Of a stretch of DNA of 64,000 nt, positions 3,775-57,255 are shown piece after piece. The notes under the pieces were generated by a model. The model did no database searches. It was not told where the DNA came from and worked only from the letters and a program-made list of their open reading frames with translations. Within the stretch, counting starts at the first letter, position 1, and each line of letters begins with the position of its first letter. The translations under genes and the position numbers were made by a program. Where the stretch lies: the NCBI GenBank assembly GCA_964016885.1, contig OZ024750.1, positions 27,838,001-27,902,000 of the forward strand, given 5' to 3'. The stretch is from Eledone cirrhosa (Eukaryota).

Positions 3775-4089
<315 letters not shown>

Positions 4090-7439: not shown

Positions 7440-7843
7440 GGGAAGTCCTGGGTGTCTAAGAGAACGAACTGTTTGGTCGGTTACGCAGGATTAACGGCCC
7501 GGGAACTGTCTCGGGTAAGTCCTGGGTGTCGAGGAGAACGAACTGTCTGGTCTGTTCCGGAGGATTAACGAAGCGGAGACTGTCTCGGGGAAGTCCCGGG
7601 TGTCGAGGAGAACGAACTGTCTGGTCGGTTACGCAGATTAACGGCCCGGAGACTGTGGATAATTTCCAGAAATTTCTGGTCGGTTACGCAGATTAACGGC
7701 CCGGAGACTGTGGATAATTTCCAGAAATTTCTGGTCGGTTACGCAGATTAACGGCCCGGAGACTGTGGATAATTTCCAGAAATTTCTGGTCGGTTACGCA
7801 GATTAACGGCCCGGAGACTGTGGATAATTTCCAGAAATTTCTG
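7440..7843. repeat. Tandem array: about 76 bp diverged units followed by four identical 55 bp units (7621-7840)
   Basis: ctggtcggttacgcagattaacggcccggagactgtggataatttccagaaattt starts at 7621, 7676, 7731 and 7786. Confidence 0.9.
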
Positions 7844-11269: not shown

Positions 11270-11550
11270 CACTATCCGGGTGCTTCCAACAGTAATGGTT
11301 GCATTTTTTAAGGGTATGTCAATATTTATTTATTTATAAAACTGATCTATATTATATTTTGTCTGATGAAAGCACACCATAATTTAACTTGGTGTCCTTG
11401 AAATATGTATAATGAAATAAATATGGTTTTATAAATATAGTTTCCATTTCTTAATATATTGTATATTTACTCCAATTAATTTGTTGAGTGCTTTATATCA
11501 GTTATAAAAATATTTTGGTTGTTATATCCCAACAAATTAAATATAACCTC
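11270..11550 (+). mobile_element. Penelope-like pLTR fragment (family C) with hammerhead at about 11355-11420
   Basis: tattttgt CTGATGA aag c acacca...tggtgt c ctt GAAA tatgta TA atgaaata. Confidence 0.7.
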
Positions 11551-15250: not shown

Positions 15251-15566
15251 TATGATTCAGTTTTATGATACAGCTTTTTGATTCAGTTTTTTTACGATGC
15301 ATAGACACTTATGTTTCAAAGCTGCTGGTTGAAATAGGTTTGTGTTTTCAGTCAGCCATCTTAGATTGCTTTCATATTTACGGTTGTCAACTTCCTTACC
15401 GTTATTCACACTTCGCTTGGACATTACGTTCATTACCTGACGCTAAATTTTCTTATTTTCTGATAACATCTTCATCAGCGACCACACGCGCACGCACACA
15501 TATGTACATGTGCACACATTTACATACAAACATACATAATCACACACAGACATATATATGTATGTA

Positions 15567-15632
<66 letters not shown>

Positions 15633-15660
15633 TATAAATATATATGTGTATATATATATG

Positions 15661-15697
<37 letters not shown>

Positions 15698-15950
15698 TTA
15701 TATATATGTATGTATGTGTATGTGTATATATATATATGTGTGTGTATATATATATACATTTATATATGTATGCATACATATATATATATATATATGTAGG
15801 CATATATATATATATATATATATATATGAATATAGACATAGAATATTCGAAAATATTCTGTATGTTTATAATAAACATTTTGAAGACCTAATCGCTATAG
15901 AATAGAATACGTCACGTATTACAATTAGATTCTCGATAAAAGCAAGGGAA

Positions 15951-15993
15951 GTAATCTACGCGTTTCATTCTTGTTAGAATTCATCAGGACTAC
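15951..15993 (-). ncRNA. Type I minimal hammerhead ribozyme (also 16261-16303 and 16571-16613)
   Basis: Reverse complement: gtagtc CTGATGA attct aaca agaat GAAA cgcg TA gattac. Confidence 0.85.
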
Positions 15994-17121
15994 ATATCCA
16001 GTGCTTTTATCGAGAATGACACAGCTAGAGACTTATAGAATACTTAGCTGTGTACAGGAACTGGTTTGAAAGAGCGGTTGCCGGTCCGGCAGAAATTAGA
16101 AATTGGAATAAATGCTCTGAAATAGCGATATATATGTGAATATAGACATAGAATATTCGAAAATATTCTGTATGTTTATAATAAACATTTTGAAGACCTA
16201 ATCGCTATAGAATAGAATACGTCACGTATTACAATTAGATTCTCGATAAAAGCAAGGGAAGTAATCTACGCGTTTCATTCTTGTTAGAATTCATCAGGAC
16301 TACATATCCAGTGCTTTTATCGAGAATGACACAGCTAGAGACTTATAGAATACTTAGCTGTGTACAGGAACTGGTTTGAAAGAGCGGTTGCCGGTCCGGC
16401 AGAAATTAGAAATTGGAATAAATGCTCTGAAATAGCGATATATATGTGAATATAGACATAGAATATTCGAAAATATTCTGTATGTTTATAATAAACATTT
16501 TGAAGACCTAATCGCTATAGAATAGAATACGTCACGTATTACAATTAGATTCTCGATAAAAGCAAGGGAAGTAATCTACGCGTTTCATTCTTGTTAGAAT
16601 TCATCAGGACTACATATCCAGTGCTTTTATCGAGAATGACACAGCTAGAGACTTATAGAATACTTAGCTGTGTACAGGAACTGGTTTGAAAGAGCGGTTG
16701 CCGGTCCGGCAGAAATTAGAAATTGGAATAAATGCTCTGAAATAGCGATATATATGTGAATATAGACATAGAATATTCGAAAATATTCTGTATGTTTATA
16801 ATAAACATTTTGAAGACCTAATCGCTATAGAATAGAATACGTCACGTATTACAATTAGATTCTCGATAAAAGCAAGGGAAGTAATCTACGCGTTTCATTC
16901 TATTCTATAGCGATTAGGTCTTCAAAATGTTTATTATAAACATACAGAATATTTTCGAATATTCTATGTCTATATTCACATATATATCGCTATTTCAGAG
17001 CATTTATTCCAATTTCTAATTTCTGCCGGACCGGCAACCGCTCTTTCAAACCAGTTCCTGTACACAGCTAAGTATTCTATAAGTCTCTAGCTGTGTCATT
17101 CTCGATAAAAGCACTGGATAT

Positions 17122-17164
17122 GTAGTCCTGATGAATTCTAACAAGAATGAAACGCGTAGATTAC
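17122..17164 (+). ncRNA. Type I minimal hammerhead ribozyme (also 17432-17474, 17742-17784, 18052-18094, 18362-18404)
   Basis: Helix I gtagtc/gattac (one GU pair), intact core CUGAUGA, helix II attct/agaat with loop aaca, GAAA, palindromic helix III CGCG, GUA triplet. Predicted cleavage between 17158 and 17159. Confidence 0.88.
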
Positions 17165-18664
17165 TTCCCTTGCTTTTATCGAGAATCTAATTGTAATACG
17201 TGACGTATTCTATTCTATAGCGATTAGGTCTTCAAAATGTTTATTATAAACATACAGAATATTTTCGAATATTCTATGTCTATATTCACATATATATCGC
17301 TATTTCAGAGCATTTATTCCAATTTCTAATTTCTGCCGGACCGGCAACCGCTCTTTCAAACCAGTTCCTGTACACAGCTAAGTATTCTATAAGTCTCTAG
17401 CTGTGTCATTCTCGATAAAAGCACTGGATATGTAGTCCTGATGAATTCTAACAAGAATGAAACGCGTAGATTACTTCCCTTGCTTTTATCGAGAATCTAA
17501 TTGTAATACGTGACGTATTCTATTCTATAGCGATTAGGTCTTCAAAATGTTTATTATAAACATACAGAATATTTTCGAATATTCTATGTCTATATTCACA
17601 TATATATCGCTATTTCAGAGCATTTATTCCAATTTCTAATTTCTGCCGGACCGGCAACCGCTCTTTCAAACCAGTTCCTGTACACAGCTAAGTATTCTAT
17701 AAGTCTCTAGCTGTGTCATTCTCGATAAAAGCACTGGATATGTAGTCCTGATGAATTCTAACAAGAATGAAACGCGTAGATTACTTCCCTTGCTTTTATC
17801 GAGAATCTAATTGTAATACGTGACGTATTCTATTCTATAGCGATTAGGTCTTCAAAATGTTTATTATAAACATACAGAATATTTTCGAATATTCTATGTC
17901 TATATTCACATATATATCGCTATTTCAGAGCATTTATTCCAATTTCTAATTTCTGCCGGACCGGCAACCGCTCTTTCAAACCAGTTCCTGTACACAGCTA
18001 AGTATTCTATAAGTCTCTAGCTGTGTCATTCTCGATAAAAGCACTGGATATGTAGTCCTGATGAATTCTAACAAGAATGAAACGCGTAGATTACTTCCCT
18101 TGCTTTTATCGAGAATCTAATTGTAATACGTGACGTATTCTATTCTATAGCGATTAGGTCTTCAAAATGTTTATTATAAACATACAGAATATTTTCGAAT
18201 ATTCTATGTCTATATTCACATATATATCGCTATTTCAGAGCATTTATTCCAATTTCTAATTTCTGCCGGACCGGCAACCGCTCTTTCAAACCAGTTCCTG
18301 TACACAGCTAAGTATTCTATAAGTCTCTAGCTGTGTCATTCTCGATAAAAGCACTGGATATGTAGTCCTGATGAATTCTAACAAGAATGAAACGCGTAGA
18401 TTACTTCCCTTGCTTTTATCGAGAATCTAATTGTAATACGTGACGTATTCTATTCTATAGCGATTAGGTCTTCAAAATGTTTATTATAAACATACAGAAT
18501 ATTTTCGAATATTCTATGTCTATATTCACATATATATCGCTATTTCAGAGCATTTATTCCAATTTATATATATATATATATATATATATAAATGTATACA
18601 TACATATATATGTATGTATACATATGTATATATATATATATATGTATATATATATACATATATA

Positions 18665-18742
<78 letters not shown>

Positions 18743-18796
18743 TATATGTGTGTGTGTGTATATATATATGTGTGTGTGTGTATATATATATATGTG

Positions 18797-18856
<60 letters not shown>

Positions 18857-18929
18857 CATTTATATATGTATGTATACATATATATGTATGCATATATATA
18901 TATATGTATATATATATACACACATACGT

Positions 18930-18970
<41 letters not shown>

Positions 18971-30940: not shown

Positions 30941-31011
30941 TATTTTATCTGATGAAAACACAAATGTTATTGCATGATGATATTTGTTTTTGAAATGCGC
31001 ATAATAAAATA
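30941..31011 (+). ncRNA. Type I hammerhead (family E) within a fold-back pLTR fragment (30831-31052)
   Basis: tattttat CTGATGA aaacacaaatgttatt..gatgatatttgttttt GAAA tgcgca TA ataaaata: 8 bp helix I and palindromic helix III. Confidence 0.8.
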
Positions 31012-32527: not shown

Positions 32528-32828
32528 CTATACGTATACATGAGCGTGTATGTGTGTGTGAGTGTGTGAGTGAACGTCAAATTTGTATATGTATACGTCA
32601 TCGCTACTGGCAACTGCTGTCTCTGGCCGAACTCAGGTCTTAAACATTTCTCTCTACTGTTTAGCCCCTTGGGTTGTGTCTACCATTATTATATTCCTTT
32701 ATTGGATACATTTCGTAACACCTGATGATATCACCGGGTTCCTGCAGAACCGGGTCATTGAAATGTGCATAGTGTATATAATAGAACTTTAAGGAATGTC
32801 ACCAGTCCAGCCTCCTCTTATTTTACTC

Positions 32829-32959: not shown

Positions 32960-33018
32960 TTTTAATATAGATGAGATTCTACAGGACTAGAACTGTTTCA
33001 TTCTTCAGAAATCATCAG

Positions 33019-33071
33019 GAGATTCCTGATGATTTCTGAAGAATGAAAGAGTTCTAGTCCTGTAGAATCTC
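33019..33071 (+). ncRNA. Type I hammerhead (family G) within a palindrome at 32960-33085
   Basis: gagattc CTGATGA tttc tgaa gaat GAAA (g/c)ag ttctagtc ctg TA gaatctc: 7 bp helix I. Related copies at 38925-38975 and 48365-48490. Confidence 0.75.
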
Positions 33072-33198
33072 ATCTATATTAAAACCTTTATACTCTGCTA
33101 TGTATTGAGTATCTTACTTACTGTGGTTACCTCCGATTCAACCCGGAATAACGTATATATATATATATGTACATTTATATATACACACACACATTTAT

Positions 33199-38839: not shown

Positions 38840-39324
38840 GCGTGTGTGTGTAAGAGAGTCCCGGGTTCAATCGGAGGCAACCACGGTTAGTAAGATACTC
38901 AATACATTAGTAGAGTGTTAATATCATCAGGCTTTTTCCTGATGATTTCTTTTGAATGAAAGAGTTCTAGTCAGAAATGTGCGGCATTTCAGCGGCAATT
39001 TTCTCCACTGTTCGAAACAAGAGGCCGACAACTGTTGTGAAAAGCCTATACCAGCCACTGGAATACAAGAGGTGGTGGCTAGCAGTGAAGGAGAAGAAAT
39101 CGTCTGGTATAGACGCAGTTCCCAACAACCTTTATTTTTATAAGCCAGGTTTCACCGATGTCTGCTACAACTGTTCTATACTATTTATAATTATACAACC
39201 CCCCCCCCCCCCCCATATATATATATATATATAAAACATGAGAAGAAAGAAGAATACTGCGTGGTTTGCACATGGGTTACATATGATAAAAATAGTCCTT
39301 CGTCAGTGATTTTCCAACCATCAT

Positions 39325-46528: not shown

Positions 46529-48499
46529 AGGGAGTGTAACGCGAAGTTACTGTAGGTTCACCCGGCTGAGCACTCGATGTTTAGGCTCACGTCAGTATCA
46601 AGGTGTAGAGCTAGACAGAGTGTAATATAATGATACAAGGACGGATTGTTACTCCTTCATTACGTTTATTGATCAGTAGCGAAACGCGCGTCACCAACCA
46701 ATAAACGTAATGAAGGAGTAACGATTCGTCCTTGTATTATTATATATATAATATATACATAAATAAGGGCCCCCCCCCCCCCCCCCGCACATGAGTGAAA
46801 TAGCTCTCAATAGCTGTAATACTATTTGCGTTTTAATTGGAAGCTAATATCTTTTTCACTGATTTGGGGTAAACGACGCAGGCGATCCTTCTTGTGGCTC
46901 CATGAAAATCCCTTGGGGTGGGGAGCTCTGAAAAATGATAGTGAATTGTCTGCTCCAGAGCAATCAGTGCAGTTTACAGTACTTACCAGCATCTCTCAGG
47001 TGCAAGTATCCAACTAAATTCCTTGGGGGAAAAAAAAAAAAAAAAATGGTTCATCTTTAGAATTTTATTTACTTACATATTTTGGAAAAAAACGCTGATT
47101 ACTAGTGGTTATAAGAGATAACTAACAATGGGGAAATAGGAAGTGTGTTAGCCTGACACCTGCTGGCAACAAACAGACCCCAACAAAAAACTTTTATCAG
47201 ATTTAAAATATGATAAACAGAGAAAATTATGAGAATTAAAAATTGAACTTGTAAACAGAATTGTAAACAGATTTTAACACAAACGTTGACAAACAGAACC
47301 GAGAAAAAAAAGTAACGAGAGTGCAAATTCTAGCAACGTAGCTAACAGCACAACATATGTTTTGCAAGCTTTGCGTGCTACAAGAGAAAAAAACTGAAGA
47401 AAAGACTGTACATGAGTCACCTTCCGAAGTAGAAAATAACCGTGGGAAAAGTATATCTCAAATGACTGTGCCCCGTTGCTCATCGAGGAAAGTGGCATAA
47501 GTGAATCTTCTGAAAAGGGGATAAATAGAAGAGGAAATATGGTAACGGGCATTAACCGAGAAAGTAACAAAGCCTGCAGGCCCGGGGCAAAGATCCATGG
47601 GTGCCGCTACACTGACCATCACAATTTCAGTGGTAAGACTAGAGGAAGAAATCGCTTCTTCTGAAAATGTACGTTACTAAGTAACGGAAGGACCTCCTTC
47701 TTCAGCCCAGGGCTAACTAAAGATCAAGACCAACAGTTGCAGCGCATTGTCACACGGCAATGGTGGGGGTGTGTGTGTGTGTGGGGGGGGGGTATTAAGA
47801 TTGAAGGTGTTCTTTTTTAAAGAGCGATGGCAGGCCGAAGATGAGTAAAACAGAATGCGGTAGCTACAACAAGGAAGTACTTCAGATTTACTGTGGGGCT
47901 AAAGACAGCAACTGATCTGTGAGATTTAATGTTAAAACTAGAAGGGGATGAAATAATTAGTATGCTGATTAAGAGAAAGAAAAATAATGAAGTCTCAAAG
48001 AGAGAGAGAGAGAGAGGTGTGTGAGAGAGAGGGAGAGAGATAAGGGACAAGTCCTAGACAGCCCCAAAAACTTTTGATAAAGACAACGTGAATGCTCTAT
48101 CAATGTTTGAGAGATTGAGTCCAGATATGTTGGAACCTACACGACTTGACTGACTAAAATGGCTGGCGGGAACCTGCACATGCGCACATGCATATACGTC
48201 TCTTTCACTTTATTTATGTATATTTCGTTTTTACCAGGCCGCAGATAAAAATATATATAATATATACACATATATATATATATATATGTGTGTGCCGCGG
48301 GTTTAATCAGGGGTAATCACAGTTAGGAAGGTACTGAATACATTAGTAGAGTGTATACATCAAGTTTAATATAGAAAGGGCTTCTACTGAACTAGAACTG
48401 TTTCATTCGAAATAAATCATCAAGCTTTCCTGATGATTTCGTTTGAACGAAACAGTTCTAGTCTCGTAGAAGCCATTTCTATATTAAATATTTTATATA

Positions 48500-50322: not shown

Positions 50323-50993
50323 ACTAACTTAATTAAAACTCATTACGCCTCACAATATATTTTATTATATTTAAATAAATGACTAACTTAATTAAAACTC
50401 ATTACGCCTCACAATATATTTTATTATATTTAAATAAATGACTAACTTAATTAAAACTCATTACGCCTCACAATATATTTTATTATATTTAAATAAATGA
50501 CTAACTTAATTAAAACTCATTACGCCTCACAATATATTTTATTATATTTAAATAAATGACTAACTTAATTAAAACTCATTACGCCTCACAATATATTTTA
50601 TTATATTTAAATAAATGACTAACTTAATTAAAACTCATTACGCCTCACAATATATTTTATTATATTTAAATAAATGACTAACTTAATTAAAACTCATTAC
50701 GCCTCACAATATATTTTATTATATTTAAATAAATGACGGTGGATTGGCAGTATCGGTAGAGGGTCGGACGCCATGCTTTCCAGCATAGTTACGTCCCTTT
50801 ACGATCTGAGTTCAAATCCCGCCGAGGTTGACTTTGCCTTTCATCCTTACGGGGTCGATAAAATAAAGTACCAGTAATGCACTGGGTAATTGCTGGCCTT
50901 GTGCCAAAAGTAGAAACAATTATATTTAAATAAATGACTAACTTAATTAAAACTCATTACGCCTCACAATATATTTTACTTTATTTAAATAAA
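50323..50993. repeat. 59 bp minisatellite (about 8 units) interrupted by a SINE-A
   Basis: Unit actaacttaattaaaactcattacgcctcacaatatattttattatatttaaataaatg. Confidence 0.95.
50738..50918 (+). mobile_element. SINE-A short form with 20 bp TSD
   Basis: attatatttaaataaatgac at 50718-50737 and 50919-50938. Confidence 0.95.
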
Positions 50994-56992: not shown

Positions 56993-57255
56993 CTATTTCA
57001 CGGCTGACCTGTAGCTATTTCACGACTGACCTGTGGCTATTTCACGACTGACCTGTGGCTATTTCACGGCTGACCTGTGGCTATTTCACGGCTGACCAGT
57101 ATCTATTTCACGACTGACCTGTAGCTATTTCACGACTGACCTGTAGCTATTTCACGACTGACCTGTGGCTATTTCACGACTGACCTGTGGCTATTTCACG
57201 ACTGACCTGTAGCTATTTCACGACTGACCTGTAGCTATTTCACGGCTGACCTGTG
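56993..57255. repeat. 22 bp minisatellite, about 12 units
   Basis: ctatttcacg(a/g)ctgacctgt(a/g)g. Confidence 0.95.

Follow-up and report, generated by a model that had tools for sequence, protein, structure and literature searches.

A young hammerhead retrozyme family of Eledone cirrhosa forms head-to-head arrays that were probably inserted by Penelope-like machinery

A 310-nt tandem repeat with hammerhead motifs was analyzed in a 64-kb stretch of genomic DNA, which is referred to as the window. On balance, we favor the view that this repeat is a young non-LTR retrozyme, likely inserted into (TA)n by a Penelope-like reverse transcriptase (RT)-endonuclease, probably from a circular 310-nt monomer. 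The window locus was one insertion of a young repeat family with more than 1,000 loci. Since the units were nearly identical and the ends carried Penelope-type insertion marks, each array likely arose in a single copying event from a small, probably circular RNA. A retrozyme had been proposed from the sequence alone, and every feature of non-LTR retrozymes that could be tested was found. The unit was a 310-nt tandem repeat (150-450 bp in such elements) with 34% G+C (<50%) and one hammerhead per unit. It was non-coding, without LTR, dispersed in many copies and associated with duplications of >4 bp. The Penelope-type insertion anatomy supported the same identification. An autonomous Penelope-like element carries an ORF with RT and GIY-YIG, and the unit was without an ORF.

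Tandem-repeat analysis of the window showed two arrays in opposite orientation, with a period of 310, inside an AT microsatellite. The left arm (15818..16901, minus strand) contained 3.5 units. Its 3' end was located at site B (unit offset 130-139, where offsets are measured from the ribozyme cut site) and overlapped the (TA)n target. The right arm (16897..18565, plus strand) contained 5.4 units, and its 3' end was located at site A, at offset 165-167. The two arms were directed outward, away from each other, and shared a 5-bp overlap at their inner junction (16897..16901, offsets 49-53 and 296-300). The (TA)n-rich target lay on both sides (left half, 15552..15827; right half, 18565..18967), and the duplication length was unreadable in pure TA. 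The 35-nt stretch between sites B and A (18529..18563, plus strand), equivalent to the Penelope 'tail' (PMC8557442; PMC11167929), was present only at the right outer end. The ribozyme cut site was at neither outer end. The locus comprised 8.9 units, and the seven full units from cut to cut (4 plus, 3 minus) were identical, one such monomer being 17159..17468 on the plus strand (no long ORF). The longest stop-free frame of the unit was 59 codons. This agreed with the sequence-only reading, which had described about nine identical units without an ORF. No ORF of interest was seen in the rest of the window. The flanks of the locus shared only dispersed repeats of 79-97% identity in both orientations, and its center was no palindrome axis.

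Eight complete type I hammerhead motifs were read from the window, five on the plus and three on the minus strand, exactly as first described, with intact core and palindromic helix III. Each consisted of CUGAUGA, a 5-bp helix II, GAAA, the palindromic ACGCGU and GUA. Helix I was 6 bp and was lengthened by a further 16-bp stem. On the plus strand, the motif with extended helix I at 17097..17186 had C3 at 17128 and a predicted cut at 17158/17159. It was followed by motifs at 17407..17496 (C3 17438; predicted cut after 17468), 17717..17806 (C3 17748; after 17778), 18027..18116 (C3 18058; after 18088) and 18337..18426 (C3 18368; after 18398). The minus-strand motifs were located at 16549..16638 (C3 16607), 16239..16328 (C3 16297) and 15929..16018 (C3 15987). 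Folding of the unit was better than that of 100 of 100 shuffles (z -4.43), and the hammerhead was present in only one polarity of the unit. In the proposed comparison with Rfam models, all eight motifs matched Hammerhead_HH9; however, the match was weak (23 bits, E 0.049), the gathering score being 52. The Rfam miRNA matches in the window were below their gathering scores and were rejected as (TA)n noise.

A genome-wide search for the unit, also suggested by the sequence-only reading, was performed with exact sequence patterns, and control patterns gave 0 matches. An internal stretch of the unit had at least 15,226 matches, corresponding to at least 4.7 Mb. Exact site-A junctions (offset 165 followed by TA) marked at least 1,046 insertion ends, with 0 for the controls. 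The hammerhead variant of the window had 3,918 exact matches. We then examined 109 loci, namely the window, 12 loci from the hammerhead matches, all 16 loci of a separate site-A search, and 80 loci from the first 100 listed of the 1,046 site-A junctions. Ninety-six of them were chosen by their site-A end with a TA or AC flank, and all but 15 of the 108 non-window loci were on contig C1. Arms with <95% identity or <40 bp were left out, as was a second insertion in L165. Head-to-head arms with one end at 127-139 (site B) and one end at 154-170 (site A, mostly offset 165) were found in 90 of the 109 loci. Another five were head-to-head with a cut or other end (95/109 altogether), 11 had a single orientation, and three were cut by the examined stretch and proved head-to-head once extended. 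In the case of the 13 loci not chosen by their end, 11 were head-to-head. Each head-to-head locus had its own inner junction. The head-to-head inversion is the normal form of the family, and this implies two priming events.

The outer ends fell at two fixed unit positions, A and B, approximately 35 nt apart, and the arms directly abutted (TA)n without LTR structure. Of the 12 loci chosen without regard to their flank, most had a (TA)n or AT-rich target. Among 28 loci, 10 had a target duplication of 12-13 bp, most of these lying in low-complexity flanking sequence. One duplication in non-repetitive DNA was found at L089, and a second, at L037, was read by eye. At other loci including the window, the duplications were unreadable because the flanks were pure TA. 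According to PMC8557442, Penelope-like elements carry a 5'-truncated copy in inverted orientation and, at one end, a tail of 30-40 bp, and they are biased toward (TA)n. In vitro, both target strands are cut and then extended, starting at two internal sites on either side of the tail (PMC11167929). The distance between sites A and B fits this tail and these two start sites. Mobilization by Penelope-like machinery had been suggested beforehand. The two fixed ends, the inverted arms, (TA)n and the duplications of about 12 bp all backed this suggestion, as did two young Penelope-like families with the same insertion layout. We therefore regard Penelope-type mobilization of the repeat family as very likely.

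These two young families (A and B), each with RT plus GIY-YIG, were found in the same genome. The best 150 matches were 99-100% identical for family B, many with a 775-codon open frame, and 97-100% identical for family A. Both families had a CxxxxCxxC linker, suggesting a putative assignment to the Neptune/Nematis type. In both, the arms were head-to-head and flanked by TA, and the two fixed ends lay downstream of a motif that was a hammerhead or hammerhead-like. Family B, with a 4,211-nt unit (L102-L121), formed head-to-head tandems that ended 127 and approximately 172-188 nt after its own hammerhead, and its arms shared private variants (L104/L105, L106, L109, L111, L112, L116). Low-depth pieces of family B were also present in run X3. 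In the case of family A (L209-L222; L044:2230-2270), the hammerhead-like motif had U3-A8 in place of C3-G8 and a palindromic ACCGGU, and the insertions ended approximately 80 and 148 nt after the predicted cut. The unit had no significant sequence similarity to family B (203/300 shuffles as good), and its similarity to family A was only marginal (matched by 11/300 and 13/300 shuffles). With 150 of 10,596 GIY-YIG candidates scored, the Penelope-like termini in 43 GIY-YIG loci showed no homology to the unit. Given the absence of significant similarity to B and the marginal similarity to A, the driver may be family A, family B or an unseen family. As a separate observation, families A and B had two overlapping frames, one of 409 or 476 codons and a second, in -1, of 775 codons. 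In five of five copies (L102:3051-6712 minus, L111, L211, L215 and L216), the first frame contained an in-phase U UUU UUA heptamer. Because of the overlapping -1 frames and the shared in-phase heptamer, a programmed -1 frameshift is likely. No report of a Penelope -1 frameshift was found in the literature search.

The units of one locus nearly always shared one haplotype in both arms. Among 83 well-covered loci, 31 haplotypes were found, which differed by 0-7 substitutions. Of the 29 fixed variants, 14 occurred in a single one of the 89 loci; some were present in 22 of 22 units across both arms, and some in arms of at least 13 units. One haplotype per locus, with 31 haplotypes in 83 loci, meant that the arrays pass a one-unit bottleneck, and the spread of a new variant over a whole array requires a one-unit stage. 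The inner ends were evenly spread, with 4 of 194 at the cut site against 6.9 expected. This lack of enrichment argues against run-off from a cleaved linear RNA. The B arm was longer than the A arm in 38 of the 90 loci, and simple fold-back from site A was therefore rejected as a general route. Runs X1, X3 and X6 each gave one 340-nt contig equal to a closed 310 cycle, which is a contig that a tandem DNA repeat yields as well. A circular monomer is, by a modest margin of confidence, our preferred usual template. Recurring interspersed variants were observed in the long arrays L150/L183 (one arm of about 45 units) and L132, and duplicated blocks in the longest arrays. L150 and L183 (G000:C1:97461509-97475587) had the appearance of an insertion turning into a satellite.

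Variants were then compared for damage to the hammerhead domain, meaning a disrupted core or base pair, with the terminal helix II pair (U-U in most loci) counted as free. Approximately 72% of all possible changes in the domain would be damaging. None of 12 locus-wide variants was damaging, compared to 31 of 35 single-unit variants (p 3e-8). Without A>G, the values were 0/6 and 30/31. When the terminal helix II pair was counted as a pair, 1 of 12 locus-wide and 26 of 30 single-unit variants were damaging (89 loci). The difference was not significant for core and helix II positions alone (0/29 vs 10/100, p 0.12), and outside the hammerhead domain no sign of selection on the predicted fold was observed (5/17 vs 25/70). 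Copies that spread thus retained the hammerhead fold, in agreement with a need for cleavage in template formation. The single recent insertion proposed by the sequence-only reading gained support from this selection and from the locus-wide haplotypes, which point to a one-unit template. The fixed variants also had an excess of sense A>G (10/31 vs 10/131). A>G recurred at a UAG and a UAA on several backgrounds, and 8 of 10 were in predicted stems. Since selection for G-U pairs in stems gives the same bias, A-to-I editing is only a lead, and the excess could reflect editing or G-U tolerance. The literature search found no report of editing carried into genomic copies.

We propose the following route. 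Read-through transcripts would self-cleave, probably as dimers via the palindromic helix III, and the monomers would be ligated into circles. A borrowed protein would bind near offsets 130-165 and nick both target strands approximately 12 nt apart, and each target 3' end would prime at one of the two sites. Each cDNA would circle the template for 0.3 to >14 laps and stop at a random place, and the two cDNA ends would be joined over 0-10 matching bases. Later, a few arrays may lengthen by unequal crossing-over.

The strongest alternative, which we consider possible though improbable, keeps the Penelope-like machinery and twin priming. Its template would be a long uncleaved linear transcript of an existing array, with circles absent or rare and new haplotypes fixed by occasional template jumping. 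In L164 and L147, the same ordered haplotype mix was present in both arms when counted from the outer ends. Such mirror-ordered mosaics agree with a linear multimer, or with the copying of one arm from its partner; in L141, a single arm was mosaic. Long source arrays were present in the genome, the inner ends were random, and the anole element uses unprocessed RNA in vitro (PMC11167929), all as expected from a linear transcript. However, the 14 fixed variants private to one of 89 loci, some in arms of at least 13 units, are hard to square with it, and it leaves the ribozyme selection in propagated copies unexplained. Arrays would also shorten and gather shared single-unit variants in each round, whereas no single-unit variant was mirrored between arms. 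A one-unit amplification in RNA has a low probability. A viroid-like RNA-to-RNA rolling circle would make uniform linear multimers that a Penelope-like enzyme copies once, and this accounts for the uniform arrays, the ordered mosaics and the ribozyme selection. RNA-RNA replication has been raised for mussel retrozymes (PMC7229834). However, 0-7 substitutions between haplotypes are few for a replicating RNA, the hammerhead was in one polarity only, and no candidate polymerase was identified. Lower still in probability is the insertion of single units followed by local growth through unequal crossing-over and gene conversion, the model of bioRxiv 10.64898/2026.07.22.740005. It agrees with the duplicated blocks and interspersed variants in the longest arrays, but cannot account for what most loci show, namely a private haplotype common to both inverted arms, outer ends at two fixed places, duplicated targets and inner ends at random positions. 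An assembly or fold-back read artefact, a concern raised by the sequence-only reading, can be dismissed. Inverted repeats between AT microsatellites are difficult to assemble, but the flanks were unmirrored, the window locus had no palindromic center, 90 of the 109 loci had the same layout with distinct junctions and haplotypes, and the contigs of run X2 showed element-to-TA loose ends, at offset 139 among others.

The circular-monomer route could be taken further, in a version that we put forward as speculative. The insertions might be snapshots of two RTs that started from the two target ends and travelled around a single circular ribozyme RNA, A>G might be A-to-I edits on that single molecule that appear in every unit, and autonomous Penelope-like families might use the same circular route. 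If true, this route would explain the tandems and inversions of Penelope elements and the purpose of their ribozyme.

Several other repeats were observed. The unit had an older relative at L044:2449-2864 and L073:97-205, with 75-82% identity across offsets 59-165; it ended in TA at the equivalent of site A and was head-to-head in L044. Other tandem hammerhead families (L085:8068-9553 and L163:2048-6164) had periods of about 490-510 and 466 nt and a palindromic ACUAGU, which indicated that several sibling retrozyme families share the genome. In the window, short and partly palindromic remnants with hammerhead-like cores were located at 32960-33085, 38900-38975 and 48385-48490. This remnant family, also in L079 and L082, was approximately 72% like unit offsets 226-305, and the remnants resemble short head-to-head insertions of old age. 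The window also contained at least four more dispersed families of hammerhead-like repeats, several next to microsatellites, at 3863, 46386 (-) and 51866 (-); at 11363, 14427 (-) and 41273 (-); at 30949; and at 32722. Near-perfect short tandem arrays were located at 7620-7843 (55 bp x 4.1), 50323-50737 (59 bp x 7.0) and 56993-57254 (22 bp x 11.9).

The origin of tandem and inverted Penelope insertions, the role of the hammerhead and the mobilizer of animal retrozymes are stated as open in the literature (PMC4209133, PMC7761336, PMC8557442 and bioRxiv 10.64898/2026.07.22.740005). Circle-to-multimer copying and Penelope partners were also proposed there before (PMC4209133, PMC7761336, bioRxiv 10.64898/2026.07.22.740005). 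The very young family described here, with more than 1,000 readable insertions, provides anatomical evidence for the use of Penelope machinery by a retrozyme, together with evidence of ribozyme-fold selection in spreading copies and of a one-unit template. The family supplies a 310-nt template whose start sites are mapped, and two candidate enzymes are encoded by open frames, so that target-primed reverse transcription by a rolling circle can be tested directly at the bench.

In L1 twin priming, two target-primed cDNAs are joined head-to-head over a few matching bases. The family differed from this in its fixed internal start sites, the absence of poly(A), and two arms that both repeat the same sequence many times. 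The kind of element is known, since metazoan non-LTR retrozymes (Cervera and de la Pena 2020, PMC7229834) have the same 150-450 bp unit, low G+C, type I hammerhead and duplications of >4 bp. The weak palindromic helix III of the unit resembled the amphibian retrozyme type described there, which requires dimers. The available part of that paper yielded no double arrays in head-to-head orientation with two fixed ends, and circular RNA was demonstrated for its retrozymes, whereas that of the present family is putative. The head-to-head, tail-bearing form was not found described, and no report of such retrozyme insertions or of this family was found in a literature search of incomplete coverage. 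Li, Clavereau and Pollet (bioRxiv 10.64898/2026.07.22.740005) proposed that Penelope-like elements mobilize retrozymes, with similar unit sizes. They reported that only one of nine Xenopus retrozyme dimers cleaved in vitro, which calls for caution on the proposed cleavage step. In the part of that preprint available, the evidence was co-occurrence and pLTR similarity, mostly in vertebrates and with no mollusc, and local tandem growth was invoked. In contrast, the link here came from insertion anatomy, most arrays appeared to be born multimeric, and there was no clear pLTR homology. The family also resembled EN+ Penelope-like elements of the Neptune/Nematis type (PMC11167929; PMC8557442), with the same inverted 5'-truncated copy and 30-40 bp tail, a pair of internal sites at which the RT starts, a hammerhead upstream of these sites, and targets that are AT-rich or (TA)n. 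Anole ribozyme mutants still insert in vitro, where the main substrate is unprocessed RNA (PMC11167929), so the anole ribozyme is dispensable there, whereas ribozyme selection was visible in the present family. The family also differed from these elements in having no ORF, a unit of only 310 nt and up to dozens of units per insertion.
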